Source: Escherichia coli
Lineage (GTDB): Bacteria; Pseudomonadota; Gammaproteobacteria; Enterobacterales; Enterobacteriaceae
Length of the DNA stretch: 47,767 nt
Direction: 5' to 3' (one strand)
Assembly (NCBI GenBank): GCA_024546615.1
Contig: GCA_024546615.1_5040.1
Below the pieces are notes generated by a model. It did not search any database and was not told the origin of the DNA. It worked only from the letters and a program-made list of their open reading frames with translations. The translations under genes were made by a program, and so were the position numbers. Within the stretch, counting starts at the first letter, position 1. Each line of letters starts with the position of its first letter. Positions 1,976-41,627 of this stretch are shown in pieces.

Positions 1976-3388
1976 ATGGCTAAGGCTGCTAAAACAAACC
2001 TTCATCTCATGCCAGCCCGGACTACCGATGGGCTGGTAAACGTTGTGTCCGGCTTAGGAACATGGAAAGCGAAACGCTCCCACAACATGTTCCAGTATGC
2101 TGCGCTGAATAACTGGCAACAACTTGACGCGGCTTACCAGACGAACTGGCTGGCTCGTCAGATTGTGGAAATACCCGCAGAGGATATGTGTCGTGAGTGG
2201 CGCACCATCAAGTGCAAGGAAGCTGATGACATCCGTATCGAAGAGGACCGCCTGATGGTCCCTGCCACCGTCCAGGAGGCTCTCACATGGGCACGTCTGT
2301 ACGGTGGTGGTGGTATTCTCATGCTGACCGGTCAGGACTTGTCAAAGCCGCTCGACGTGCGCCGTATTCGTAAAGGTGATTTGAAGCGTTGTATCGTGTT
2401 TGACCGTCATGACATGTCACCGCTCACTATGAACACCTGGGACATTCTGGCACCCAACTACATGATGCCGGAGTATTACACCATCACCGGCGGTGGGCAG
2501 CAAATCCACTGGACCCATTTTGCGCGTTTCAATGGTAAGCGTATCCCACGTCGCCAGATGGTCCAGACTCAGGGGTGGGGCGACAGTGAGTTACGCGTGT
2601 GCCTCGATGACATCATGGACATGGTTGCGTCGAAGGACGGCATTGCAGAACTGATGCAGGAAGCTAACGTCGATGTGGTTAAACGTGAAGGGCTGTCCGA
2701 TGAGTTAGCCAGTGACCAGGATGACGCAATTGTGTCGCGTTACACCCTGTTCAGTCAGATGAAATCACTGGTGCAGATGGCCCTGCTGGACGGTGATGAA
2801 TCGTATGAACGCAAGACGCTCGACCTGGGCGGTGTTGCACCGGTGCTTGAGACGTTCATGACGTGGATCAGTGGTGCAGCTGACATTCCTGTTACGCGCC
2901 TGTTCGGTACTTCAGCCAAAGGTTTAAACGCCACGGGTGAAGGTGACATGAACAACTACAATAACTCCATCCGCGCCAAACAGTTAACACAGGTTGACCC
3001 TGGGCTGCGCCAGCTTGATGAGGTGCTGGTGCGTAGCGCACTGGGTTACTGGCCTGACGACTTTAACTATGAGTGGCGACCACTCGCGCAACCTAACGAA
3101 TTACAGATTGCACAGGCCGCCAAAATCCGCGCTGATAAGGATATGCTGTATCTTGCCGAGGGGATAGTGAAGCCGTCACAAATCATGCGCAATCTCGAAT
3201 CATCTGAAGAATATCAGTTTGAAGATGGTGAGATAGATAAACAAGCTTCAGTTGAGTTGGATTACATCGCGTCTCCGCCCGATGACGAACCGAAACTCAC
3301 GGAACAACAGGACGCATTCTGGATACGTTATAACCAGTACGCGACTGATGGCTTGTCTCACGATGAGATAATGGCAAAACTATCCTAA
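1976..3388 (+). CDS. Portal protein (putative)
   Basis: 470 aa ORF immediately after terL; size and position typical; no motif check possible. Confidence 0.6.
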   Translation: MAKAAKTNLHLMPARTTDGLVNVVSGLGTWKAKRSHNMFQYAALNNWQQLDAAYQTNWLARQIVEIPAEDMCREWRTIKCKEADDIRIEEDRLMVPATVQEALTWARLYGGGGILMLTGQDLSKPLDVRRIRKGDLKRCIVFDRHDMSPLTMNTWDILAPNYMMPEYYTITGGGQQIHWTHFARFNGKRIPRRQMVQTQGWGDSELRVCLDDIMDMVASKDGIAELMQEANVDVVKREGLSDELASDQDDAIVSRYTLFSQMKSLVQMALLDGDESYERKTLDLGGVAPVLETFMTWISGAADIPVTRLFGTSAKGLNATGEGDMNNYNNSIRAKQLTQVDPGLRQLDEVLVRSALGYWPDDFNYEWRPLAQPNELQIAQAAKIRADKDMLYLAEGIVKPSQIMRNLESSEEYQFEDGEIDKQASVELDYIASPPDDEPKLTEQQDAFWIRYNQYATDGLSHDEIMAKLS

Positions 3389-4000
3389 TCTACCCGAGAT
3401 GTACCTTGCATACAGTCTCGAAGCGGTACATCTCGGGTATTTTTTGAAAAAGTAGAAGTATGCTTCTTGGTCGAATTTATTACCTTTCGAACGATTTATT
3501 TCTCTCGGCAATAGGCAGAGATTTTCCGAAGTATGTAACCCTCTGACATCCACGCCGCGCAACGGAATGATGTGGTCTACTTCGAGATTACCGCCAAGTA
3601 GCTTCGCGTATCGGTAAAGTTGCGAATAGACTTTTTCCACATCTTTACCGATTGAGGCCTGTGTTAAGTTTGCTCTTCTTTTGACCACTCTGGTTGCGAA
3701 CTTATCCTTGTTGGAAAGATAATGCCTTTTTGATTTATCAGCATACTTCTTGGGATTTTTTCTTTGCCAATCAATCACCCTTTCAATAATGACGTGTTTG
3801 TTTTGTTTGTAATACTCTTCTCTATATCGTGAAACTTTTTCTACGTTCTCGGATTGCCATTTCTTGTTGTATTGGGAAGTATGTGATTGATTCTGCTCAT
3901 TCCACTTTCTCTTGTACTCTTTTCTCATCTCTTTCCATTCTGAAATTCTAAGAGCATATTCGCTGTCTGTTTCAGTTTCTTTTTGCTTTGGTTTAGTCAT
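3380..4000 (-). CDS. HNH homing endonuclease
   Basis: C-terminal LEVDHIIPL...NLCLLPREINRSKGNKF HNH motif; basic N-terminus; RBS AGGTGG; inserted antisense between portal and head genes. Confidence 0.8.
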   Translation of the reverse strand: MTKPKQKETETDSEYALRISEWKEMRKEYKRKWNEQNQSHTSQYNKKWQSENVEKVSRYREEYYKQNKHVIIERVIDWQRKNPKKYADKSKRHYLSNKDKFATRVVKRRANLTQASIGKDVEKVYSQLYRYAKLLGGNLEVDHIIPLRGVDVRGLHTSENLCLLPREINRSKGNKFDQEAYFYFFKKYPRCTASRLYARYISGRLG

Positions 4001-4062: not shown

Positions 4063-4629
4063 TTATGCTTTCCGATACCCCGCATCATACAGAATCTTAA
4101 CCGCACCGATTGACACGCCGGACAGCCGAACCATCTCATCAATCGCGCGTTCCGCTTCGGTGCGGAGTGGGCGCAGACGACCCGGTGCAAAACATGCAGA
4201 CCGTCCAGCACCTTTATCGTCCCAGTAAACGACCGCTACATCATTTCCGTCACTTGTGGTTTTATGTGCGATGACCTCAACAATTTCACCTTCCGCCGGA
4301 AGAATACCGTCGAAGTCAGTCTCTATGTCGTATGTACCAATGGTGAATTCCACATCAATACCAACCGGCGGCAAACCTGTTCCATCCCAGCCGACTGCCT
4401 CGTACTGTTCACGTGTGACAATTGCTGTTGCATGATTACACACCTGAGGTAAGTGACCAAGTAGCTTGTGACTTACGTGACTATCCATCCACTCATCATC
4501 TTCGTCTTTCTCCGGCTTATGGACGAAACCCCATACACTTCCTTCCTCTTCCTGTGCGATGAATTTAACACCCTCCGGCCAACCGCCACGCTTTGGTAAT
4601 TCCTGACGCAATAGTTCAAGTAATGTCAT
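4063..4629 (-). CDS. Acidic hypothetical protein (188 aa)
   Basis: About 34 D/E versus about 19 K/R; ATGA stop/start overlap with next gene; member of minus-strand operon driven by promoter at 5390-5418. Confidence 0.5.
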   Translation of the reverse strand: MTLLELLRQELPKRGGWPEGVKFIAQEEEGSVWGFVHKPEKDEDDEWMDSHVSHKLLGHLPQVCNHATAIVTREQYEAVGWDGTGLPPVGIDVEFTIGTYDIETDFDGILPAEGEIVEVIAHKTTSDGNDVAVVYWDDKGAGRSACFAPGRLRPLRTEAERAIDEMVRLSGVSIGAVKILYDAGYRKA

Positions 4630-4883
4630 TTTGTCTCTCCTGTTGCTTTAGCGATGGCTGCGCTGGCAAGCGACATTTCAGACTCATAGTGCTCATTCCA
4701 GTTTTGTTTTTGACCAGCCCGAAGCATTCTCCGCAACGCTTCCAGTAGTTCCGGAGCGGCGCAGAACAGTCTGGCGTCAGATTCGGTTTCTACTTGACCA
4801 ACAACCGTTACCCATTTTTCTGTTTCATCGGCAATGGTATATTCGCCAATGCTATCTTGCGTGTATACGAGCTTACGTGTCAT
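4626..4883 (-). CDS. Small acidic protein, paralog of 5056-5352
   Basis: Shares ELLEAL and C-terminal AAIAKATGETK with 5056-5352; duplicated DNA segment at gene 3' ends; RBS AGGAGA; start trimmed to MTRK. Confidence 0.5.
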   Translation of the reverse strand: MTRKLVYTQDSIGEYTIADETEKWVTVVGQVETESDARLFCAAPELLEALRRMLRAGQKQNWNEHYESEMSLASAAIAKATGETK

Positions 4884-5059
4884 CTCTCTTCTCCTGTTGC
4901 TTTTTGGATGCAAATAGCATCGAAACCACTATAGTTTTTATTGAAAATTGCACTTATGTTTTCAGCTGCCTTTTCACATGCATCATGATTAGAAAACTCA
5001 GCCGTTGTTACCGCTGGTCCTTGATATGACGCAACAATGATAAACAGAATCCATGTCAT
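4880..5059 (-). CDS. Small protein with hydrophobic N-terminus (about 59 aa)
   Basis: MTWILFIIVASYQG... read from minus strand; ATGA overlaps with neighbours; not in ORF track (below cutoff). Confidence 0.3.
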   Translation of the reverse strand: MTWILFIIVASYQGPAVTTAEFSNHDACEKAAENISAIFNKNYSGFDAICIQKATGEER

Positions 5060-5352
5060 TTTGTCTCTCCTGTTGCTTTAGCAATGGCTGCTTCAGCTTT
5101 CGAAGTGTTGACGTAAATACATGCGCGAGCTTGCAAATCCTGCAACGCTTCCAGTAGTTCTGAATTGATTTGGTATACGTCCGTTGCTAGCTCAACAATG
5201 TCAATGGTCGCGGAACCATCGCGTCCTTGTTCATCTTCACCGTATACTTCGAACTCACCGTTTAAAAAGTCTTCCGAACCGGATTCATACTGTGAAAGTT
5301 CGTATAAAAAATACATTGCATTGTTACCGTAGGTCAGTTCTCGTTTACCCAT
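5056..5352 (-). CDS. Small very acidic protein (98 aa)
   Basis: About 20 D/E versus 7 K/R; first gene after promoter 5390-5418; RBS AGGAGA; start trimmed from track ORF to MGKRELT. Confidence 0.5.
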   Translation of the reverse strand: MGKRELTYGNNAMYFLYELSQYESGSEDFLNGEFEVYGEDEQGRDGSATIDIVELATDVYQINSELLEALQDLQARACIYVNTSKAEAAIAKATGETK

Positions 5353-5389
5353 CTCTCTTCTCCTGTGATAATATTTAACTAACACGTAC

Positions 5390-5418
5390 ACTCTATACCA
5401 CACTGACGGAGTCGTCAA
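5390..5418 (-). promoter_or_regulatory. Sigma70-like promoter TTGACG-17-TAGAGT overlapping palindrome TGACGGAGTCGTCA
   Basis: -35 is rc of 5413-5418, -10 is rc of 5390-5395, spacer 17; drives minus-strand acidic gene operon. Confidence 0.55.
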
Positions 5419-5420
5419 GC

Positions 5421-6206
5421 ATGTCACGACAAACAGAGCTGAATTATTATCGCCAGTTGAAACAGGTTGCCCGGCTTGTTCGTGAGGATGTGGACGCCAA
5501 CATCGTACCACTGGTGAAACAGCTTGCGCCGGAGTACACCGCTGACGGCTGGAGCGATACTATCACCTCGGCAATTAACCAGTTGCTTACACGGTGGCTT
5601 GGTGCGTTTGCTCGTCGTCAGGCTGAAACCATTGCGTCACAGTTTGTACAGACTGCGGCAAAGGATAACGCCCGTACATTCGCTATCAATCTGTACGGCG
5701 GTGATACACAGTTGCAGGAATATCTCAGCGCCGCATCGTATCAGAACGCTAAACTTATTCAGTCTATCCCGGCTCAGTATCTGGAGCAGGTGCAGAACAT
5801 TGTCATGACCAACATGCGTAACGGTATGCGCCCCAGCTACATTGAGCAGGCACTTGTTAAGCAATTTGGTATCACGGAACGTCGCGCTAAACTTATCGCC
5901 CGGGACCAGACCAGTAAAATACAGGGCGACATGAACCGCATTCGTCAGACGAACAGCGGTATTGAGTATTTCAAATGGGTAACGTCACAGGATGAGCGTG
6001 TGCGTCACAGTCATGTTGAAGTTGCAAAGCGTGATGTGGGATTCGGTGAAGGTGTATTCCGCTGGGATGATTTACCGGTTGTCGATGGTGTACCAACATT
6101 TCCCGGTCAGCCAATAAATTGCCGCTGTGTGGCAAGACCAGTTACAGCGGCACAGGTGGAGCGTAACAAAAAGGCCGGTAAAACCGACCCAAATGTTAAG
6201 CGTTAA
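5421..6206 (+). CDS. Head morphogenesis protein, Mu F / SPP1 gp7-like
   Basis: C-terminal motif ERRAKLIARDQT...YFKWVTSQDERVRHSH...NCRC typical of Phage_Mu_F family. Confidence 0.8.
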   Translation: MSRQTELNYYRQLKQVARLVREDVDANIVPLVKQLAPEYTADGWSDTITSAINQLLTRWLGAFARRQAETIASQFVQTAAKDNARTFAINLYGGDTQLQEYLSAASYQNAKLIQSIPAQYLEQVQNIVMTNMRNGMRPSYIEQALVKQFGITERRAKLIARDQTSKIQGDMNRIRQTNSGIEYFKWVTSQDERVRHSHVEVAKRDVGFGEGVFRWDDLPVVDGVPTFPGQPINCRCVARPVTAAQVERNKKAGKTDPNVKR

Positions 6207-6355
6207 TCCGTTACTTTTACAGAAGCTGTGACAAGAATCGCAACGAAGAGAAACCATCCCCATCCTTCTTTACCATTGAAAGCCAACCAAGCAGAGCACA
6301 CTATTGCAAAAAGTGTCGGTAATTTTATCAACGCAACAATAATTATGTCTTTCAT
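6203..6355 (-). CDS. Small membrane protein (about 50 aa)
   Basis: MKDIIIVALIKLPTLFAIVCSAWLAF...; RBS GAGGTGGG; below track cutoff. Confidence 0.3.
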   Translation of the reverse strand: MKDIIIVALIKLPTLFAIVCSAWLAFNGKEGWGWFLFVAILVTASVKVTD

Positions 6356-6510
6356 TTCCCACCTCGCACAATGCGGCACATATCGTTATAGATGACCGGG
6401 TGTTTGCGACAACCGCATAGATTATTGTTGTGACAAGCTATCAAACTGATGTCTTTTCCGGCATACCTTTTAAACCACCAACGACGCCACAGAAACCACC
6501 TGAGTACAGT
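6356..6510 (-). CDS. Small Cys/Trp-rich protein (about 51 aa)
   Basis: RBS GGAAGGG then ATG on minus strand; MTVLRWFLWRRWWFKRY... Confidence 0.25.
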
Positions 6511-6616
6511 CATTTTCCCTTCCACGTTTCAATTAAACTTTCAATACCCAGGAACAGTAAGTAACCGAATACCAACGTTCCGAACCAGTGGTCGGCAATG
6601 AAGTTGAGTACGTCAA

Positions 6617-6805
6617 TCATTTCCCACGTCCTCTGAACACACGGTTTATCACTTCCCACAGTCCGGCAAATACAGCAACCGGACCAAATGCAACAATTGC
6701 CCACGCCTGCCACTTATATTCCAGTTCCATAGGCAGCGTGTTGATTGTTACTATAATTACCCACCCTGCAAGCAGAATAATCAGTACACCTTTAACAATA
6801 CCCAT
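6617..6805 (-). CDS. Small two-TM membrane protein with basic C-terminus (holin-like topology)
   Basis: 62 aa, two hydrophobic segments, C-terminal RVFRGRGK. Confidence 0.35.
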   Translation of the reverse strand: MGIVKGVLIILLAGWVIIVTINTLPMELEYKWQAWAIVAFGPVAVFAGLWEVINRVFRGRGK

Positions 6806-7002
6806 TAACCCAACACCTTATTAACAAGTTGATTCATCTCGACCCAGCGCTGAGATACTGACCCATCCTCTTTGGTTGCGGTGAATGTCACAATATCTTC
6901 GAGGGAGTTCATTTTGAAGTTTGTCACGGTGATGACGCCGTCCACATCGATAAATTTGTCATTGTTGCGGAGCATTACCGCCTTGATTGGTTTACAATTC
7001 AT
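6805..7002 (-). CDS. Hypothetical protein (65 aa)
   Basis: Tightly packed minus-strand ORF with overlapping stop/start. Confidence 0.4.
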   Translation of the reverse strand: MNCKPIKAVMLRNNDKFIDVDGVITVTNFKMNSLEDIVTFTATKEDGSVSQRWVEMNQLVNKVLG

Positions 7003-7190
7003 TTTCCATACGCCTCACGTAATGTAGCGTTAGCGAGCGCCCAATCTTCATGCTTGCGTGCAATCTGTTGTGCGGCCTTTAACAGTTCTTTATCGACAAT
7101 GCGCGCCTCTGATGCAGGGCGGTTGTAGCCTGGAAGTAATGTGTTATCCAATGGCAAGCTCCCATGCGGCTTTATTGTTGAGATATGCAC
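6999..7190 (-). CDS. Hypothetical protein (63 aa)
   Basis: Minus-strand ORF, ATGA-type overlap with neighbour. Confidence 0.4.
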   Translation of the reverse strand: MHISTIKPHGSLPLDNTLLPGYNRPASEARIVDKELLKAAQQIARKHEDWALANATLREAYGK

Positions 7191-7350
7191 ACGTGAGTCC
7201 AGATTTTTCCGTGATTATGAATATTCTACAACCAACATCGTCGATAATATGTCCGTATTTGTACTCCGATGATGTTGGTTTGAATTCGTAACACTTGCCA
7301 TTCGTTAAGTAATCACAATTAGTCGGTACGTTGTTTGTAAATACTTTCAT
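7144..7350 (-). CDS. Hypothetical protein (68 aa)
   Basis: Minus-strand ORF in small-gene block. Confidence 0.35.
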   Translation of the reverse strand: MKVFTNNVPTNCDYLTNGKCYEFKPTSSEYKYGHIIDDVGCRIFIITEKSGLTCAYLNNKAAWELAIG

Positions 7351-7468
7351 CTCTCAAACCCTCTCTGCTGTTGATAAACTGAGTATACGTCATCCCTGAC
7401 GAACCCGTCAACATAAATATTTAACCCAAATCACAACGCCGACACAAAGTAGGAGGTAGTCCATAGTG

Positions 7469-7669
7469 TCACTCCTGCGGCGGCTCGGGTAACGGTTGCC
7501 AGTGGGTTACATATTTACCGTAGTGATTCCAGAACGACTTTCTCCCGTCGTCAGGAACAATGTAGTAGTCGTGCTGAACTGCGTTATTCAACGTTTCATA
7601 CACCAGGAACTCTTTATCGGTACTACCGTTACCCGGCAACATCTCACTACACTTAATCCAGTTTGCCAT
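7469..7669 (-). CDS. DUF551-like protein (paralog of 40954-41157)
   Basis: MANWIKCSEMLPGNG...W...PLPEPP matches MSEWIKCSEQMPEPG...W..MPEAP of 40954-41157. Confidence 0.55.
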   Translation of the reverse strand: MANWIKCSEMLPGNGSTDKEFLVYETLNNAVQHDYYIVPDDGRKSFWNHYGKYVTHWQPLPEPPQE

Positions 7670-7847
7670 ACAATGTCCCCACTCGTTTTAAATCGCGCCG
7701 TGCGTGACAGCTATAAGTACCATCGTCCCACTGCACATAGTAGCGCGGTGGCTCATCAGTCATTACGTTTGCGACAACACCCGTAACGACACCGTTGGGG
7801 AACAACTTCACAAGTGTTCCGGTTGGATAACGTGGAATGGTTGTCAT
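7653..7847 (-). CDS. Hypothetical protein (64 aa)
   Basis: Minus-strand ORF upstream of DUF551-like gene. Confidence 0.4.
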   Translation of the reverse strand: MTTIPRYPTGTLVKLFPNGVVTGVVANVMTDEPPRYYVQWDDGTYSCHARRDLKRVGTLYGKLD

Positions 7848-7974
7848 AATTACTCACCCTCATACAGCGGTTTCAGTTGATACCCGAACATGACAGCGTT
7901 GTTATGCGCCACACTGCCCGCGCGGACCAGATATGTCGTACCGCGGTTGGTTGTCACTTCGTATGCGTATGGTT

Positions 7975-8340
7975 TCATTTGTCACCCTCCGACAGTTCAT
8001 CAATCAGACGCTCCAGATACCAGCGGGCCTTTTTCACATCTTCCAGACCGTTCTTCTCTTCGTAGCGCCACAGGTATTTAACAACGTTTGCCACACATAC
8101 CGCCTCGATACCAGTTTTACCAACCGTGGCGGCTTCGATAGCATCGATACACTCAATACCACCTTGTGTGTAGTGTGACGGATGATTGACCATGTCATTG
8201 ACTGCTACGGGTTCACGTTGGGCGATGATTTTTGATGTTTCCTCATGACTATTATATTGACAAACATAGTCACTGTTTACATTTTTAAACCTATCACCCA
8301 GTGAATAACCCTCGGAGCAATAATGCCTATCGGAGTACAC
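7975..8340 (-). CDS. Hypothetical protein (121 aa)
   Basis: First gene of minus-strand block downstream of promoter at 8462-8490. Confidence 0.5.
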   Translation of the reverse strand: MYSDRHYCSEGYSLGDRFKNVNSDYVCQYNSHEETSKIIAQREPVAVNDMVNHPSHYTQGGIECIDAIEAATVGKTGIEAVCVANVVKYLWRYEEKNGLEDVKKARWYLERLIDELSEGDK

Positions 8341-10088: not shown

Positions 10089-11123
10089 ATGGATAAGTTA
10101 AACAGCGTTGTACTTGACGCACAGACTATCGCGGGTAACCCGTGGGTCAAACAGTATCTGGACGGTCAGAACGCTATCAACGTTCCGGCTGAATTCCGTG
10201 ATGCTGACGGTGGTATCGCGTTCTACATCTCTCAGCTGGCACAGGTTGAGCAGACCGTTTACGCGACTCCATATGCAGATATTACCTATCTGCAGGATAT
10301 TCCGGTTGTGTCCGGCATCCCGGAACATGCGAACCATTGGGTGTACCGCTCATATGATGGCGTCACGGTTGGGAAATTCATCGGCGCAAACGCTATGGAC
10401 CTGCCACACGTCGCCCAGTCTGCAAAACTCCACACTGTACCGCTGAACTACGGTGGTATCGAGTGTCACTACAGCATCGACGAGCTGCGTACCACTGCGT
10501 CTCAGAACATGCCGATTGACACCATGCAGCAACAGTTGGCGTATCGTGGCTATGAAGAACACAGTCAGAAAGTGGCTTACTTCGGTGACTCACAACTGGG
10601 AATGGCCGGTCTGTTTAATAACAGCAACGTTACAGCGACCAGTGCAACTGTTGACTACACCACTGCCACCGGTCAGGAGCTGTTCAACATGCTCAACGAC
10701 CCACTGTTCGACGTCATCAAACTGTCCAAAAACTTCCACCTGCCTAACACCGTTCGCGTATTCCCGGACCTGTGGAAGCGCATGAACAGCACGCTAATGA
10801 CTGGTTACTCCGACACCACCGTAATGGAGTTTTTCAAAACCAACAACGCGTACACTCTGATGACCGGTCAGGAAATTGACATTCAGGTTCGTTTCCAGCT
10901 GACCGCTGCGGAGCTGGCTGCGGGCGGTGTGTCCAACGGTTCGAAAGACCGCGTGCTCATTTACGAGAAGAACGACCGCAACCTGGGTGTTGCTAAGCCG
11001 ATTCCGTTCCGTATGTTGGCACCACAGAACAAAGGTCTGGCCGTAACTGTACCGGCAGAGTATAAGATTTCAGGCACCGAAATTCGCTATCCTCTGAGCG
11101 CAATCTATCTCGACATGCTGTAA
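10089..11123 (+). CDS. Major capsid protein (lambda gpE-like fold presumed)
   Basis: 344 aa; position after scaffold/decoration genes; followed by strong intrinsic terminator. Confidence 0.7.
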   Translation: MDKLNSVVLDAQTIAGNPWVKQYLDGQNAINVPAEFRDADGGIAFYISQLAQVEQTVYATPYADITYLQDIPVVSGIPEHANHWVYRSYDGVTVGKFIGANAMDLPHVAQSAKLHTVPLNYGGIECHYSIDELRTTASQNMPIDTMQQQLAYRGYEEHSQKVAYFGDSQLGMAGLFNNSNVTATSATVDYTTATGQELFNMLNDPLFDVIKLSKNFHLPNTVRVFPDLWKRMNSTLMTGYSDTTVMEFFKTNNAYTLMTGQEIDIQVRFQLTAAELAAGGVSNGSKDRVLIYEKNDRNLGVAKPIPFRMLAPQNKGLAVTVPAEYKISGTEIRYPLSAIYLDML

Positions 11124-11146
11124 TACCTACCCTCAGCGACATCCCA

Positions 11147-11172
11147 AGCCCTCTTCGGAGGGCTTTTCTTTT
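11147..11172 (+). terminator. Rho-independent terminator after capsid gene
   Basis: Hairpin AGCCCTC-TTCG-GAGGGCT followed by TTTCTTTT. Confidence 0.7.
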
Positions 11173-11219
11173 GTCTCCTCTTGGGTTATAGTTACCACCG
11201 TCTTAAGAGGAGGAATTCC

Positions 11220-12800
11220 ATGTTCGTAGAAAGAGCAAAAAAAATACATAAAGGGAAATACGACTATTCCAAAGTGGAATATGTAAATAATAAAACACCC
11301 GTGACGATAGTTTGTCCGGTGCACGGTGATTTCGTTCAAATACCGCAGGGACACCTGAACTGCGAAATAGCGTGTCCAAAATGTAGAATCGACGATGTTT
11401 ATGACCGAATGATACAGCGGGCACGGGAGATTCATGGTGACAGATACTCATACGTCCGGGAATCATTCGTTTCCGTAGTCAAGAAAATGTCTATAATTTG
11501 TCCTGTACACGGGGTGTATCGGATGACACTGAACAACCATGTTCACAATGGTGCGGAATGTAAACCATGCGCACTGGCGAAACGTGGAGAATCACAACGG
11601 AAGACACTTGACAGTTTTGTGGAAGACGCGAAAAAAGTTCATGGTGACAGATACGATTATTCCAAAGTTATTTACGAGGGCAACAAAAAGAAAATAACCA
11701 TCACTTGTGCAAAACATGGTGACTTCAAACAGGAACCATATTCACATCTTTCGGGAAGAGGTTGTCCAAAATGCGGTCTCGAATCCAGAGCAAGCAAAAG
11801 TATGAGTACTCTTGAAAGATTCATTCACAAAAGCAGAGCTATACACGGTGACAAGTATGATTATTCTAAAGCGGTGTATAAAGGTAGTGACCAAAAACTA
11901 ACCATAATTTGTCCGGTGCACGGTGAATTTTCCCAATACGCAAATAACCACTCTACTCTTGGTCATCAATGCCCGACGTGTTCAAAAGCGGGTGTGTCCC
12001 GAGGTGAATTTGAAGTCTTCAACTTCGTCCGTTCCATCTGTCCCGATGCGGTACAATCCGACCGTACAACCATTGGACCGCTGGAACTTGATGTTGTAGT
12101 GCCGTCGCGCAATCTGGCAATTGAATTTAACGGTCTGTACTGGCACGATGAGCGCACGAAAGACAAGAAGTATCACATCGCCAAGCGTCACCGCGTGGAA
12201 GCCGCAGGATACCGTCTGATAAGTATCCGTGAGGATGTCTGGAATGAGCGCCGTGAGCAGGTAGAAAATATCATTCGCAACGCGCTCGGCGTGACATCCG
12301 ACAAAGTGTTTGCCCGTAAATGTGACATCGTGGAAGTTTCGACGTCTGAAGCGAAGGTATTCATGGAGAAACACCACGTGCAGGGTTTCCGGGGTGCGAC
12401 CGTTCATTATGGTTTGCAACATGATGACACCTTAGTTGCTGTGATCAGTCTGACAAACTGGCAGAAAAAGAACGAATGGGAACTGGTACGATATGCAACC
12501 GCGTGTAATGTCCCGGGTGGACTGTCCCGCTTGTGGAAACATGCTACCACGGTTAACAGCATCGTCCGCGCCTATTCATACGTTGACCGGGATTTGTTCA
12601 GCGGTTCCAGTTACGCTAATGCCGGTTTCATACTTTCAGCCACAACAGTAGGATTCAGGATCGTAAATGGTTGCACAACCGAATCGCGTGAGAAGTGGAA
12701 CCGCGCACCAGACGGAATGACACAGACGCAATGGTACGAATCAGAAGGTGTATCACGCATCTACGATTCTGGACAGGACAAGCTGTTATGGGTAAAATGA
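11220..12800 (+). CDS. Homing-endonuclease-like protein: four tandem zinc-ribbon modules, Vsr/DUF559-like nuclease core, unknown C-domain
   Basis: Four repeats of ...HGDxYDYSKV.Y...K.TI.CP.HG.F.Q.P..HL.G.GCPKCG; then ELDVVVP...LAIEFNGLYWHDE resembling Vsr FVDGCFWH motif; RBS AGGAGG; inserted after capsid terminator. Confidence 0.6.
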   Translation: MFVERAKKIHKGKYDYSKVEYVNNKTPVTIVCPVHGDFVQIPQGHLNCEIACPKCRIDDVYDRMIQRAREIHGDRYSYVRESFVSVVKKMSIICPVHGVYRMTLNNHVHNGAECKPCALAKRGESQRKTLDSFVEDAKKVHGDRYDYSKVIYEGNKKKITITCAKHGDFKQEPYSHLSGRGCPKCGLESRASKSMSTLERFIHKSRAIHGDKYDYSKAVYKGSDQKLTIICPVHGEFSQYANNHSTLGHQCPTCSKAGVSRGEFEVFNFVRSICPDAVQSDRTTIGPLELDVVVPSRNLAIEFNGLYWHDERTKDKKYHIAKRHRVEAAGYRLISIREDVWNERREQVENIIRNALGVTSDKVFARKCDIVEVSTSEAKVFMEKHHVQGFRGATVHYGLQHDDTLVAVISLTNWQKKNEWELVRYATACNVPGGLSRLWKHATTVNSIVRAYSYVDRDLFSGSSYANAGFILSATTVGFRIVNGCTTESREKWNRAPDGMTQTQWYESEGVSRIYDSGQDKLLWVK

Positions 12801-12832: not shown

Positions 12833-13590
<758 letters not shown>

Positions 13591-32346: not shown

Positions 32347-32375
32347 ACTCTAAACTACTTTGACGCACTCGTCAA
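32347..32375 (-). promoter_or_regulatory. Sigma70-like promoter TTGACG-17-TAGAGT overlapping palindrome TTGACGCACTCGTCAA (32360-32375), embedded in 3' end of upstream gene
   Basis: Spacing read directly. Confidence 0.5.
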
Positions 32376-32948
32376 CGGTAAAACTAACTTTTCTGCTTCC
32401 TGAATGTACCAGTCGTAATTCAGTGCTCCCCAGTCGAAGTCTTTAGCGTCGGCACACTCTGTCACCTTCCATCCTGCACACATACTTGTTTCGCGCACTG
32501 CATCGTGCTTACTGCGACTCTTCGTGTGGATACGCTCGTCCCACGGTGTACCAATGCTGTCGAGGTCGCCCGGTTGACCTGTAATCTCACGCATTACCGC
32601 ATTGTACACATCGTCCTTGACACCATTCTTACGCTTCCATGTACCTGGTGTACCAGTGGGCGGTAACAGCTTGACCAGTGACCCACCGTTACGCGAGATA
32701 AATACACGTGTGGTATTCTGCATCTCCTGTTCAGCGCCCCACTCAGGCCAACGCATCACCAGACGTGCCGAACGAGGTACTTTGGCGCGCAGCATGAAGT
32801 CGAACGGGTCACGGTGCTGCGTGATGAACGTGCGGATGTCAGTGTCAAACAGAAGTGCGGCTTCAGCGGCGCGGGCAACAATCATCGCCGATGGGTCTTG
32901 ATGCCACTGGTATTTGTACTCGTAACACCCTTTTCTTTTAATTTTCAC
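32355..32948 (-). CDS. Hypothetical protein (197 aa) sharing GTPWDERIH motif with 37785-38834
   Basis: Motif DSIGTPWDERIHTKS versus DSTGTPWDERIHSTS in the 349-aa protein. Confidence 0.45.
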   Translation of the reverse strand: MKIKRKGCYEYKYQWHQDPSAMIVARAAEAALLFDTDIRTFITQHRDPFDFMLRAKVPRSARLVMRWPEWGAEQEMQNTTRVFISRNGGSLVKLLPPTGTPGTWKRKNGVKDDVYNAVMREITGQPGDLDSIGTPWDERIHTKSRSKHDAVRETSMCAGWKVTECADAKDFDWGALNYDWYIQEAEKLVLPLTSASK

Positions 32949-33828
32949 GGGTTGCCTCCAGCATTTCTAAAATTCGATTGTCCCATTTCAACCATTCGGT
33001 ACAACCATCAAAACCAGATAGTCCAGCATTAACGAAAGAAGAATGAGTTAGTTTTTCGATAAATTCCATTTTTCCACCTATGCCAGATAAAACTCGGAGT
33101 AACTGAAAATCAAATGGCGTACTTCTTTTCAATTTCCTCAAGCGATATTTATAATTATTGCTGATACCGACCTTCATATATTCCCCACCTTTGGAAGCAA
33201 GTACATAAAGGGAAGCCATCTGGTTACGTTTAAATCCACTCTTAGAACAGTCTTGACATCCTTGTCCACCGGATACGTGATCTATAGCCAATTTTTCAAA
33301 ACTACCGTGAACAGGGCAAATTATCTTTATTTTATGATGATTACCTTTATATTGAGATTCCGAATAATCATACTTATCCCCATGTACTGCGCGGGCTTTC
33401 TCAATCCATTCTTCGGTGTTATAAAGAGGAAGTCGTCCTTTTCCAGGACCTCCTGCGCATTTCGCGCACCCGTGGCCTTTTAGATGATTGCCGGCTAATT
33501 GGAGGAATTCCCCATGCTCTCGACAAATGATTATTATTTCTGAATGTCGTTTTTTATACTTAACCTTCGAATAATCATACTTATCTCCATGTACTGCACG
33601 GGCTTTCTCAATCCATTCTTCAGTGCTGGATTTTTTTGTCCCACCACAAACTGGGCAGCCGGAACCAGAACAGTGAGACGTGGGTTCTTGTCGGAAATCT
33701 CCATGCAATCGACAAACAATGGTCACTTTATGTTTTGAAGTACGATACTCGACCTTCGAATAATCATACTTATCTCCGTGTACCGCACGGGCTTTCTCAA
33801 TCCATTCTTCTGTGTTCAATCTTCTCAT
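32938..33828 (-). CDS. Homing-endonuclease-like protein: three tandem zinc-ribbon modules plus C-terminal T5orf172 (GIY-YIG-like) domain
   Basis: Three repeats of EEWIEKARAVHGDKYDYS...; C-terminal YVLASKGGEYMKVGISNNYKYRLRKL...GCTEWLKW; contains three ~55-bp DNA direct repeats. Confidence 0.6.
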   Translation of the reverse strand: MRRLNTEEWIEKARAVHGDKYDYSKVEYRTSKHKVTIVCRLHGDFRQEPTSHCSGSGCPVCGGTKKSSTEEWIEKARAVHGDKYDYSKVKYKKRHSEIIIICREHGEFLQLAGNHLKGHGCAKCAGGPGKGRLPLYNTEEWIEKARAVHGDKYDYSESQYKGNHHKIKIICPVHGSFEKLAIDHVSGGQGCQDCSKSGFKRNQMASLYVLASKGGEYMKVGISNNYKYRLRKLKRSTPFDFQLLRVLSGIGGKMEFIEKLTHSSFVNAGLSGFDGCTEWLKWDNRILEMLEATREN

Positions 33829-35348
33829 TCTATTACCATTATGTAATTATTCACATCTCGCTGATAGAGAGATTTCACAATATCAGTCTCCAGATTCAAC
33901 ATTGTTGTTTTTTCCCAAGACTTACATATGGATTCCACCAAAATTTCATATTTGTTTTCATAAAAAATGACGATTCCGTCAGTATTAGTTTGCGGTACGA
34001 TTAATCCGGGTACACGAGTTACAAGTTGGTCTACCAACATTGCCAAACAGAGTTGACCTGTAATAGTAATACTCAGGAGACACTTATGGTCACAAAATGG
34101 GCTAAATTTACTCCCCATGTTCCCAAATGTACCATTAAGAGCAAGTTTCAATGCCGCATCAACTGTTTTATCTCCCGCTCGTTTTGCATCACGACGACGA
34201 ATGAACAGTTGTTCATATACGTCGCAAAAAGTTTCACTAAGGTGTTCCGGATAGTACCTATTCTTTATACTAATGGAAGGGTACATACTTGTACAGTCTT
34301 TGTTTTGTAAATTGTGTGTTTGGGTAGAATGCACAACGTAGTTCGGAATACTACTGTGAATACCTCCCAATCCGAACGAATATTCGACACCATCAACTGT
34401 GACGGTCATATCACTAAACACACCTTTTGTGGTCAGTAATTCGTCCTGTTGTTTCTTCGTGAGTACAACCCCACGAATGCGTTCCAGAATTTGATTGAAC
34501 TCCGGTCGTTCGAATTTGATATAAGGGGGTATGCAATCTGCAAGTGCAATACGTTCACGAATGGTTACTCCGGAGCAATCTACCCCGGCCTTTTCCAGCT
34601 CGTGAACGAATATATCTTTGCCGATTTTAGTGTCGGCGTGGTTCATGAAGTTACGTCCGTATTGCTTTGTCAGTTCCTCACGGAAATGGATTTTGTCGAG
34701 TGAACGTACAAAGAATTTCAGCGTCTCTCGCACGTCGTGTTTGTTATATACGATGAGGATATCTTTCTGCGCATCGTTCAGCACCATTCCGACCGGGAAT
34801 GGCAGGTCTTTTACGTTGGGGGACTGCATGCCCACTTCCAACGCCTTCAGACTGGTGCGCCGGGCTTTATTATCAAAGTGATGAATTTTGTACAGGTCAA
34901 TCTGCTCGAAAATCTGGTCGCGGTCCCATACAATTTCGGGCCACTGACCTTCGGGTTTAATTTGTGATTGTGCTTTTGTGTAAATCTGTTCCAGTGTACA
35001 GCCTGGTGTATTGACCACGTAGTGCAACACCGGATAGTCGAATGCCAGGTTATTAAATCCAATCCCACGGGCCTTACTACATCCCAGGTTGAACACAAAT
35101 TCGATTAATTGCGGTTGCTCGTTTTTGCGGTCACTAATCTCGAAGATTAACTCCATACCCGTCGCAGCGTGAATAAATGAGGCAGTGAAGATATTCGGAT
35201 ACGTCTCGATGTCCCATCCCCAGTCCCGCGGGTCCAGTGGTGCAACGCTGGAGAACGCCGAATCAGCCCCACAGTGAGGGCAATTGTGGAGGTCAGCGGG
35301 ATAATTTTTACCGCAAGTTGCATCCTCGCATTTTGATAAATAGTGCAT
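33825..35348 (-). CDS. Compact family-B DNA polymerase with 3'-5' exonuclease motifs and N-terminal zinc finger
   Basis: Exo I WDIETY, Exo II FNNLAFDYPVL, Exo III YNKHDVRE; motif A DCTSMYPSI, motif B KLALNGTFG, motif C TNTDG; N-terminal C-x4-C-x11-C-x2-C. Confidence 0.7.
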   Translation of the reverse strand: MHYLSKCEDATCGKNYPADLHNCPHCGADSAFSSVAPLDPRDWGWDIETYPNIFTASFIHAATGMELIFEISDRKNEQPQLIEFVFNLGCSKARGIGFNNLAFDYPVLHYVVNTPGCTLEQIYTKAQSQIKPEGQWPEIVWDRDQIFEQIDLYKIHHFDNKARRTSLKALEVGMQSPNVKDLPFPVGMVLNDAQKDILIVYNKHDVRETLKFFVRSLDKIHFREELTKQYGRNFMNHADTKIGKDIFVHELEKAGVDCSGVTIRERIALADCIPPYIKFERPEFNQILERIRGVVLTKKQQDELLTTKGVFSDMTVTVDGVEYSFGLGGIHSSIPNYVVHSTQTHNLQNKDCTSMYPSISIKNRYYPEHLSETFCDVYEQLFIRRRDAKRAGDKTVDAALKLALNGTFGNMGSKFSPFCDHKCLLSITITGQLCLAMLVDQLVTRVPGLIVPQTNTDGIVIFYENKYEILVESICKSWEKTTMLNLETDIVKSLYQRDVNNYIMVIE

Positions 35349-40957: not shown

Positions 40958-41157
40958 GTGAGTGGATTAAGTGTAGTGAGCAGATGCCTGAACCTGGTGT
41001 TCCGGTGTTAGTAGTCAGTATGATTGGTAACGCCGTTCAAAACAATGTGTACGAATGGGACGGTCGAACATGGAGCGATTTTCGAAACGATTATGGCGAA
41101 TATGAACCAGAAGTATTTACACACTGGATGTCAATGCCGGAGGCTCCGCGTCTATGA
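40954..41157 (+). CDS. DUF551-like protein
   Basis: MSEWIKCSEQMPEPG... paralogous to 7469-7669. Confidence 0.55.
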   Translation: MSEWIKCSEQMPEPGVPVLVVSMIGNAVQNNVYEWDGRTWSDFRNDYGEYEPEVFTHWMSMPEAPRL

Positions 41158-41627
41158 CACCAACACTTCTCGAATGGCAACGTAAACACGGTATCACGGC
41201 TGAGGCGCTGGCTGACCTTGTGACAATGGTGGGACTGGATGTCCCACGCTCAAGCAAAGGTACGCCTGAAGCGCGTGTACAGGATGAGGCGCGACTACTG
41301 GCAAGCAAAATGGGCTGGCGACTTTTTCGCAATAATGTGGGTGTTCTGAAAGATGAGCGGGGTGTACCGGTACGCTACGGCATCTGCAACGACTCCCCGG
41401 CGATGAACAAGCGTATCAAGTCGAGCGACCTCATCGGTATCCGCCCCGTGGTTATCACGCCCGATATGGTCGGGTCAACCATTGGACAGTTTGTGGCGCG
41501 TGAGGTAAAGAAAGCCGGGTGGAAGTATAAAGGTACGGAACACGAACAGGCACAGCTTGCATTTGGGACACTTATTATCGGGCTGGGCGGTGATTTTAAA
41601 TTTTGGTCAGGGGAGGGGGAGTTGTAA
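41154..41627 (+). CDS. VRR-NUC domain nuclease
   Basis: WRLFRNNVG...SDLIGIRP...REVKKAG pattern; typical neighbour of phage helicase/primase. Confidence 0.55.
   Translation: MTPTLLEWQRKHGITAEALADLVTMVGLDVPRSSKGTPEARVQDEARLLASKMGWRLFRNNVGVLKDERGVPVRYGICNDSPAMNKRIKSSDLIGIRPVVITPDMVGSTIGQFVAREVKKAGWKYKGTEHEQAQLAFGTLIIGLGGDFKFWSGEGEL

Follow-up and report, generated by a model that had tools for sequence, protein, structure and literature searches.

What occupies the gap between the major capsid gene and the next structural gene in some Klebsiella phages of the genus Jedunavirus, and how did it come to be there? The window analysed here, a stretch of 47,767 nucleotides, belongs as a whole to such a phage (48 kb), and in it the gap holds a 526-codon gene on the plus strand. 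We propose that its product is a free-standing homing endonuclease of the Hef-like type and is functional, a reading that we hold to be probable. The gene is a new and intact allele of an element type that already has a name. An initial annotation, made from the sequence alone, had described a capsid-adjacent endonuclease with tandem zinc modules and a Vsr-type core. Its structural claims all survived testing, but the Hef-like family name was missed, although the nearest relatives are annotated in that way.

The distribution of the gene among related phages speaks for its mobility. A 5-kb stretch around the gene matched 71 phage records at 80-95% identity, 65 of which were Klebsiella phages. 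Among the best 60 of the 71 records, about 35 carry the gene at this site and about 25 do not, the record spans at the locus being 2601 bp with the cassette and 994 or 1931 bp without it. In JD001, the type species, and in HF1013, about 13 bp separate the terminator of the capsid gene from a -10-like box, after which comes the gene for a 105-amino acid protein. The same gap is occupied by the endonuclease gene in the window, 1611E-K2-1, KpV52, RCIP0030 and RCIP0047. The upstream gene is annotated 'major head protein' in its orthologs from JD001, 1611E-K2-1, KpV52 and HF1013. That a free-standing gene lies after the capsid terminator and before the next structural gene, as the initial annotation had it, was confirmed by this comparison and by a terminator scan. 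Presence at the identical position in all relatives, which that annotation had named as the observation that would speak against it, was not what we found, as this position holds no such gene in JD001, HF1013 and at least 20 more of the relatives listed.

Alignment of the occupied site with the empty sites of JD001 and HF1013 placed the insertion junctions at 11171/11172 on the left and at about 12789/12790 on the right. Homology with the empty sites ends after GGGCTTTTCTTT at position 11171, where the terminator lies, and resumes in the -10 region of the downstream promoter-like site. The -35-like hexamer of that site, TGGACA, is within the endonuclease coding sequence, and its -10-like hexamer, TAAAAT, overlaps the stop codon. 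The terminator and the downstream promoter-like site therefore both stay usable after the insertion, and the cassette appears to rebuild the promoter that it displaced, the site being promoter-like by consensus. Between the terminator and the start codon, the promoter scan found no canonical sigma-70 promoter. An alternative start of the open reading frame (ORF), a TTG at 11181 on the same plus strand with the same end at 12800, was considered; the ATG at 11220 is the likely start because a GAGGAGG Shine-Dalgarno sequence precedes it by 5 nt.

The family assignment of the 526-amino acid protein was made by profile and by genomic behaviour. The protein matched PHROG 559 with an E value of 2e-126 (residues 64-525 aligned to profile positions 128-600 of 607) and phrog_3339, named 'homing endonuclease', with an E value of 8.5e-71. 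The closest protein, from phage 1611E-K2-1, is 93.9% identical and annotated 'putative Hef-like homing endonuclease'. The gene thus belongs to the Hef-like family by its profile matches, and also by its behaviour as a free-standing gene that some close relatives have and others lack at one precise site. Hef, for homing endonuclease-like function, was reportedly described in the T4-like phage U5 by Sandegren et al. in 2005. The U5 gene is placed at the nrdA-nrdB locus and described as a homing endonuclease (review PMC2988022), and the window protein is tied to it by annotation, locus and reviews. A direct comparison was possible with the Hef-like protein of Tequatrovirus SG1 (ASZ76141), encoded between nrdA and nrdB, which is 37% identical to the window protein over residues 269-440 (E value 2e-29), a stretch that covers the nuclease and a portion of the C-terminal domain described below. 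The window protein therefore has a nuclease and C-terminal core in common with the T-even gene at the nrdA-nrdB (mobE) locus, and both genes are free-standing beside an essential gene. The two differ in locus, downstream of the capsid gene in one and nrdA-nrdB in the other, and in their DNA-binding front end, as the SG1 protein lacks the DUF723/DUF4379 modules in Pfam. Because SG1 matches in the core without having the fingers, the conserved unit is the nuclease plus the C-terminal domain, and the front end varies by lineage. When used alone, the C-terminal domain found 380 phage records, and many among those listed are annotated Hef-like or homing endonuclease. The listed matches include F-LimVII and F-LimX of Dickeya phage LIMEstone1, proteins of Campylobacter phages (9-11 copies each) and proteins of jumbo phages; the Hef-like group as a whole also includes F-LimIII, VII, VIII and X of LIMEstone1.

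The architecture of the protein is four zinc modules of 54-55 amino acids with the pattern CxxH...CxxC, then a Vsr-like nuclease core, then a tail of about 168 amino acids. The Vsr-type core that had been proposed to follow the modules stood up well. It carries the motif ELDVVVP...LAIEFNGLYWH at residues 289-309, and a profile of residues 258-361 built from 22 relatives matched a single entry among PDB sequences, the catalytic domain of I-Bth0305I (3R3P, E value 4e-9). I-Bth0305I is the prototype of the 'EDxHD' family of Vsr-like homing endonucleases, in which 'bacteriophage Hef type homing endonucleases' were explicitly included (Taylor et al. 2011). The predicted active-site residues follow the same E...D...(N)...H...D order as in I-Bth0305I and are conserved across the 22 relatives (E263 in 21, D291 in 21, N304 in 22, H309 in 22 and D339 in 17), so that the domain is an EDxHD member both by homology to I-Bth0305I/Vsr and by its residues. 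The two enzymes are otherwise built differently: I-Bth0305I, unlike the window protein, is encoded by a group I intron, binds DNA through NUMOD and helix-turn-helix (HTH) elements, and has no domain like the tail described below. The curated models Vsr, DUF559 and MTES_1575 matched the nuclease below their cut-offs only (MTES_1575, 21.8-25.5 bits against 38.2; NCBIfam Vsr, E value 0.079). The domain is related to these models, yet stays under their thresholds.

The tandem modules proposed in the initial annotation, four fingers of the CapR/DUF723/DUF4379 type that fold independently of one another, were also recognised by three independent profiles. Pfam DUF723 matched the array with 48.2 bits (E value 1e-12, cut-off 20.9) and DUF4379, a 'probable treble clef zinc finger', with 25.0 bits (cut-off 24.5), both above gathering score, and phrog_4605 matched in four separate stretches (E value 1.9e-38). 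Pfam CapR reached 17.3 bits, below its cut-off of 24.2. Each module has a helix that ends in HG(D/K)xYxYS, a hairpin with C(P/A)xHG, and then CxxC. In an AlphaFold2 model of residues 1-262 (predicted local distance difference test score 86.6), a beta-hairpin knuckle carries the CxxH pair and the N-terminus of a helix the CxxC pair. The modules had been called zinc ribbons; they are zinc modules indeed, but in the model they look treble-clef-like rather than like classical zinc ribbons. This treble-clef reading rests on the topology of the model and on the Pfam description, because no solved structure matched the array: a Foldseek search of the four-finger model against PDB gave no meaningful match (best E value 0.0086, TM-score 0.12).

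What, then, is the tail? The initial annotation had left about 190 amino acids without a function; the length is about 168, and we recognise in it a GNAT-fold domain related to the DNA-modifying protein Mom. A Pfam and NCBIfam scan of the whole protein returned nothing for the last 168 residues, and the window protein did not match Pfam PF25680, the Mom protein family, at an E value of 1 or less, which leaves it below the gathering score of that family. More distant relatives do pass PF25680 (7 of 21 match, with up to 32.4 bits among full-length relatives against a gathering score of 27.1 bits). A Foldseek search of the C-terminal model against PDB returned Mom of phage Mu (8BV8) as the top match (E value 3e-7), above generic GNAT acetyltransferases, and a profile-profile comparison with 30 Mom homologues gave a probability of 92% (E value 6.5e-7). 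Because of these three results we assign the tail to the Mom clade of GNAT proteins, a membership by a fold closest to Mom together with profile-level homology. Aligned by hhalign with one sequence alone, that of Mu Mom, the C-terminal profile gave a weak match (probability 5%), which became convincing only against the Mom family alignment, and a PDB sequence profile search with the domain matched GCN5 (0.004) and not Mom. The nuclease and the Mom-like domain were modelled as one confidently packed unit (predicted template modelling score 0.89).

The residues of Mom allowed a closer comparison. Mu Mom is a Gly-tRNA-dependent, DNA adenine-modifying GNAT that works as a stand-alone anti-restriction enzyme; its activity requires R111, S124 and R151, and mutants of D149, H58, Y59 and Y159 have reduced activity (PMC13219725, PMC7261163). 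The equivalents of H58, E108, R111, S124, D149, G156 and Y159 in the window protein are H386, E421, R424, S436, D456, G462 and Y465. Among 21 diverse relatives, six of these positions (all except S124) are kept in 19-21 sequences, the arginine of R111 being invariant, and the S124 position is serine in 14, the others having G, Q, T, D, K or E. The position of the essential R151 is D458 in the window protein and arginine in 9 of the 21 relatives; that of Y59 is V387, hydrophobic in all of them. Five of the seven proposed Mom active-site residues are thus kept (R424, S436, D456, H386 and Y465), and the R151 and Y59 positions have changed. The window domain also differs from Mu Mom in being fused to a nuclease. 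The profile alignment ends at Mom residue 180, so that most of the HTH-like insertion at 175-209, which Mom needs for activity, lies beyond it.

These residues bear on a different explanation of the whole protein, namely that it is a single-chain weapon of the restriction-modification kind, in which an active Mom-like domain marks adenines in the DNA of its own phage (with a glycyl- or carbamoylmethyl-type group) and the nuclease cuts host or rival phage DNA that lacks the mark, instead of homing or besides it. Exactly such a function was predicted by Iyer et al. (2021) for the Mom-restriction endonuclease (Mom-REase) fusions of jumbo phages, which they read as a restriction-modification-like conflict system. 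These fusions have the same combination of nuclease and Mom-like domain, and RaK2 and Muenster-type jumbo phages were among the matches of our C-terminal domain. The near-complete conservation of six Mom positions, including the Mom-specific and essential arginine, the retention of the essential serine as S436, and the ratio of nonsynonymous to synonymous divergence (dN/dS) of the Mom-like domain, 0.06-0.07, would all fit an active modification domain. So would the observation that the nuclease and Mom-like domains always occur together, even in proteins of 268-285 amino acids that have no finger array. We nevertheless judge this explanation unlikely. The essential R151 is an aspartate here and an arginine in a minority of relatives, serine is not general at the S124 position and a hydrophobic residue replaces Y59 throughout, the window protein escapes the Pfam Mom model, and the alignment stops short of most of the HTH-like insertion. 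The window gene, unlike the Iyer fusions, lies in a 48-kb phage and has the genomic behaviour of a homing gene: presence or absence at one precise intergenic site is a signature of homing, and the Hef of U5 has been described as a homing endonuclease.

A related proposal is that Hef-like enzymes are bifunctional, with a homing nuclease and an active DNA adenine-modifying Mom-like domain in one polypeptide. Because the catalytic residues of Mom are partly retained, we give DNA modification a modest chance, and the bifunctional enzyme remains in our estimate rather doubtful. If it did exist, the carrier genome would be marked at or near the recognition site, which would give a selfish nuclease its own immunity function, and the modification would possibly depend on aminoacyl-tRNA, as in Mom.

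Our preferred reading, a functional homing endonuclease, would work as follows. During co-infection, the zinc-finger array would read an extended DNA site in a gene-less genome; this target presumably lies in or close to the 3' end of the capsid gene, the terminator or the promoter. We base this step on existing knowledge of the Hef of U5, of I-Bth0305I and of T5orf172 nucleases with the same fingers. The EDxHD domain would then cut the gene-less genome, and recombinational repair from the carrier genome would copy the gene, together with flanking capsid-region markers, into the cut genome. We infer these three steps, reading, cutting and copying, from homologues. The cassette would be nearly harmless to its carrier, with the terminator intact and the downstream promoter rebuilt from the 3' end of the cassette itself. 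Swapping of finger arrays with three, four or five modules on one catalytic half would retarget the enzyme or broaden its specificity. The Mom-like domain most likely helps to engage DNA, either as a reader that flips or binds adenine or as a platform for oligomerisation.

Alleles of the gene at this locus made it possible to ask how the parts have diverged. The array has three modules in KpV52 (465 amino acids), four in the window (526 amino acids) and five in RCIP0047 (588 amino acids). These arrays are 30-70% identical to one another, whereas the nuclease and Mom-like half is at least 94% identical. Between alleles, dN/dS was 0.05-0.12 in each of the three parts, array, nuclease and Mom-like domain, at a synonymous divergence (dS) of 0.27-0.54; the capsid gene gave a dS of 0.38-0.56 and a dN/dS of 0.07-0.12. 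By these estimates, purifying selection acts as strongly on the endonuclease gene as on the capsid gene. The low dN/dS and the capsid-like dS suggest that the gene is functional and not a decaying remnant, and that it has diverged in step with its neighbourhood.

A decaying, inactive homing-endonuclease remnant that hitch-hikes beside the capsid gene would be expected on general grounds, since homing genes should decay once fixed, and no activity data are on record for this gene. Such a remnant is nonetheless highly improbable here. The frame runs through 526 codons without interruption behind a good ribosome-binding site, no catalytic residue is lost, dN/dS is low in all three parts despite a dS of up to 0.54, and the site is polymorphic in the genus, so that targets for homing remain.

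The same selection data would also suit a resident gene with a host function, and this leads to the possibility of a domesticated DNA-binding regulator, in which the array binds near the capsid operon and controls its transcription as the satellite protein CapR does, the nuclease being irrelevant or lost. The fingers belong to the CapR/DUF723 type, and CapR itself descends from such nucleases and represses a capsid gene (Barth et al. 2023, PMC10448857); the window gene is located between a terminator and a promoter-like site. Against a regulator of this kind stands a nuclease whose catalytic residues are all intact and conserved and whose dN/dS is as low as that of the rest of the protein. Many relatives, the type species JD001 among them, lack the gene, and the CapR model of Pfam stayed below its cut-off. 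We regard it as very improbable.

Several points weigh against the homing endonuclease that we favour. Arrays of 30-40% identity occupy exactly one site, which is odd if the array alone sets the landing place. The synonymous divergence equals that of the capsid gene and is as compatible with long vertical residence as with repeated homing. The flanks are not cleanly split between occupied and empty genomes, and no co-conversion tract is demonstrated: identity to the window along the flanks is a mosaic (82-98% per 200 bp), with no split between occupied and empty genomes, and the flanks of HF1013, an empty genome, resemble the window as closely as those of occupied genomes do. No cleavage site, target sequence or homing event is on record for this protein or for any Jedunavirus allele, and the role given to the Mom-like domain is inference only.

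The fingers are not confined to the capsid-adjacent gene. The initial annotation had noted the same module joined to a T5orf172 nuclease in a second gene of the window, on the minus strand, and Pfam placed both MUG113 (24.9 bits, cut-off 22.3) and T5orf172 (21.8 bits, cut-off 20) above their cut-offs in its product, which also matched phrog_681, 'endonuclease' (E value 6e-67). The metal ligands CxxH...CxxC are kept in seven of seven modules, four in the first gene and three in the second, and a module profile run on the ORFs of the window matched none beyond these two genes. Domain shuffling between the two nuclease families, as had been suggested, holds for the shared module but not as a recent exchange. 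The modules of the two genes have 36-61% amino acid identity and just 42-62% nucleotide identity, which rules out a recent exchange of DNA between them, so that the shuffling is evolutionary. Tandem CapR/DUF723/DUF4379 fingers have been described on T5orf172 homing nucleases of ICP1 and other phages, where the finger-bearing nucleases cluster near capsid genes and shuffle domains (Barth et al. 2023, PMC10448857). The second gene is a direct member of that group. The capsid-adjacent gene has in common with it the beads-on-a-string fingers, the proximity to a capsid gene, the variation in array length and the shuffling of domains, but carries its fingers on an EDxHD and Mom-like back end and not on T5orf172, which is related to GIY-YIG.

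The second gene splits the DNA polymerase gene (32355-35348, minus strand) into two ORFs, 33825-35348 (507 amino acids) and 32355-32948 (197 amino acids). The first polymerase fragment ends ...RDVNNYIMVIE* and the second begins VKIKRKGCYEYK, and phage MEW1 has one uninterrupted polymerase of 724 amino acids that reads ...RDVNNYLALDNKGNVKRKGAYEYK. Relatives have other nucleases (HNH) or nothing at this split site. The second gene is a mobile insertion in its own right, and the polymerase presumably functions in the form of two chains. Translational coupling is suggested by the overlap of stop and start codons at the split (ATGA; GTGAAAATTAA). We considered a group I intron around either endonuclease gene and dropped it, as a search of the whole window with Rfam at gathering thresholds gave no match and hence detected no group I intron; for this reason we treat both endonuclease genes as free-standing.

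As an annotation, the capsid-adjacent gene is routine, since phages commonly carry homing endonuclease genes beside their capsid genes and the family is already named. Its alleles with three, four and five modules, together with the empty sites, form a ready-made natural system for studying how modular fingers set the specificity of a nuclease. The family also joins a Vsr-like nuclease to a relative of Mom, whose tRNA-dependent chemistry was worked out only in 2023-2026, and in the literature searched we found no experimental study of the role of the Mom-like domain in a homing enzyme. Jedunaviruses are candidate phages for therapy against Klebsiella, and such genes mark recombination hot spots that are to be expected when these phages are compared or engineered. 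The coordinates of the features are collected in Table 1.

Table 1. Features of the capsid-adjacent locus and of the second endonuclease gene (window positions unless a record is named).
Feature	Position	Strand	Remarks
Major capsid (head) protein gene	10089..11123	+	upstream neighbour, outside the element; stop 11121-11123
Intrinsic terminator of the capsid gene	11146..11173	+	8-bp stem (11146-11165), 4-nt loop, T-run; terminator scan
Inserted homing-endonuclease cassette, ~1.6 kb	11172..12789	+	alignment of occupied and empty sites
Shine-Dalgarno GAGGAGG	11208..11214	+	5 nt before ATG 11220; read directly from the sequence
Hef-like homing endonuclease coding sequence (probable)	11220..12800	+	526 amino acids; ATG at 11220, stop TGA 12798-12800
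Zinc module 1 (CPVH...CPKC)	11220..11384	+	Pfam DUF723, best stretch residues 18-55
Zinc module 2 (CPVH...CKPC)	11406..11570	+	most divergent of the four modules
Zinc module 3 (CAKH...CPKC)	11613..11774	+	Pfam DUF4379 and CapR stretch, residues 152-186
Zinc module 4 (CPVH...CPTC)	11817..11981	+	motif reading
Vsr-like 'EDxHD' nuclease domain	11991..12293	+	residues 258-358; predicted catalytic E263, D291, N304, H309, D339
Mom-like GNAT-fold domain	12294..12797	+	residues 359-526
Promoter-like site for downstream structural genes	12770..12798	+	promoter scan, 10/12 positions; consensus match only
105-amino acid gene (phrog_10035)	12833..13150	+	directly follows the capsid gene in relatives without the insert
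Compared alleles (records L006, L009, L008, L005)	L006:2035-3432, L009:2028-3794, L008:2021-3601, L005:2021-3601		compared with window 11220-12800
Second free-standing homing endonuclease, 296 amino acids	32938..33828	-	three modules and a T5orf172/MUG113 domain
Modules of the second gene	33807-33646, 33618-33457, 33411-33247	-	same type as in the capsid-adjacent gene
T5orf172/MUG113 nuclease domain of the second gene	~33210-32968	-	Pfam

Variation around the capsid locus extends to the genes downstream of the insertion site. When JD001 (L004:2029-2200) was compared with window positions 12833-13000, the 5' half of the 105-amino acid gene was 56-64% identical and the 3' half 80-95%. HF1013, which also has an empty site, carries a 5' half of the window type (98.8%). 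The divergence of the 5' half in JD001 may reflect a recombination breakpoint or a resistant target allele. HF1013 also has a gene annotated 'endonuclease' on the opposite strand, two genes downstream (L003:2781-3713, minus strand), and the window has none there. A second indel hot spot is found one gene downstream (window 13150-13171; L004:2365-3302; L005:3970-4907). At this spot, JD001 and 1611E-K2-1 carry two extra genes (585 and 357 nt) between the 105-amino acid gene and the gene for a 139-amino acid virion protein, and both extra genes are absent from the window, KpV52 and HF1013.

Other nuclease-like ORFs were seen elsewhere in the window. An endonuclease VII-like ORF (3380-4000, minus strand; phrog_1035, E value 7e-19) directly follows a 470-amino acid ORF at 1976-3388, the putative portal gene, and a 157-amino acid 'endonuclease' is encoded at 41154-41627 on the plus strand (phrog_93, E value 1e-19). 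These two ORFs are possibly further mobile nuclease genes. At 4063-5511 and 6070-8340, the plus-strand module of head genes is broken by blocks of small ORFs (62-188 amino acids) on the minus strand, and the match of the ORF at 5421-6206 to a head-morphogenesis profile of 624 positions covers just positions 75-334.

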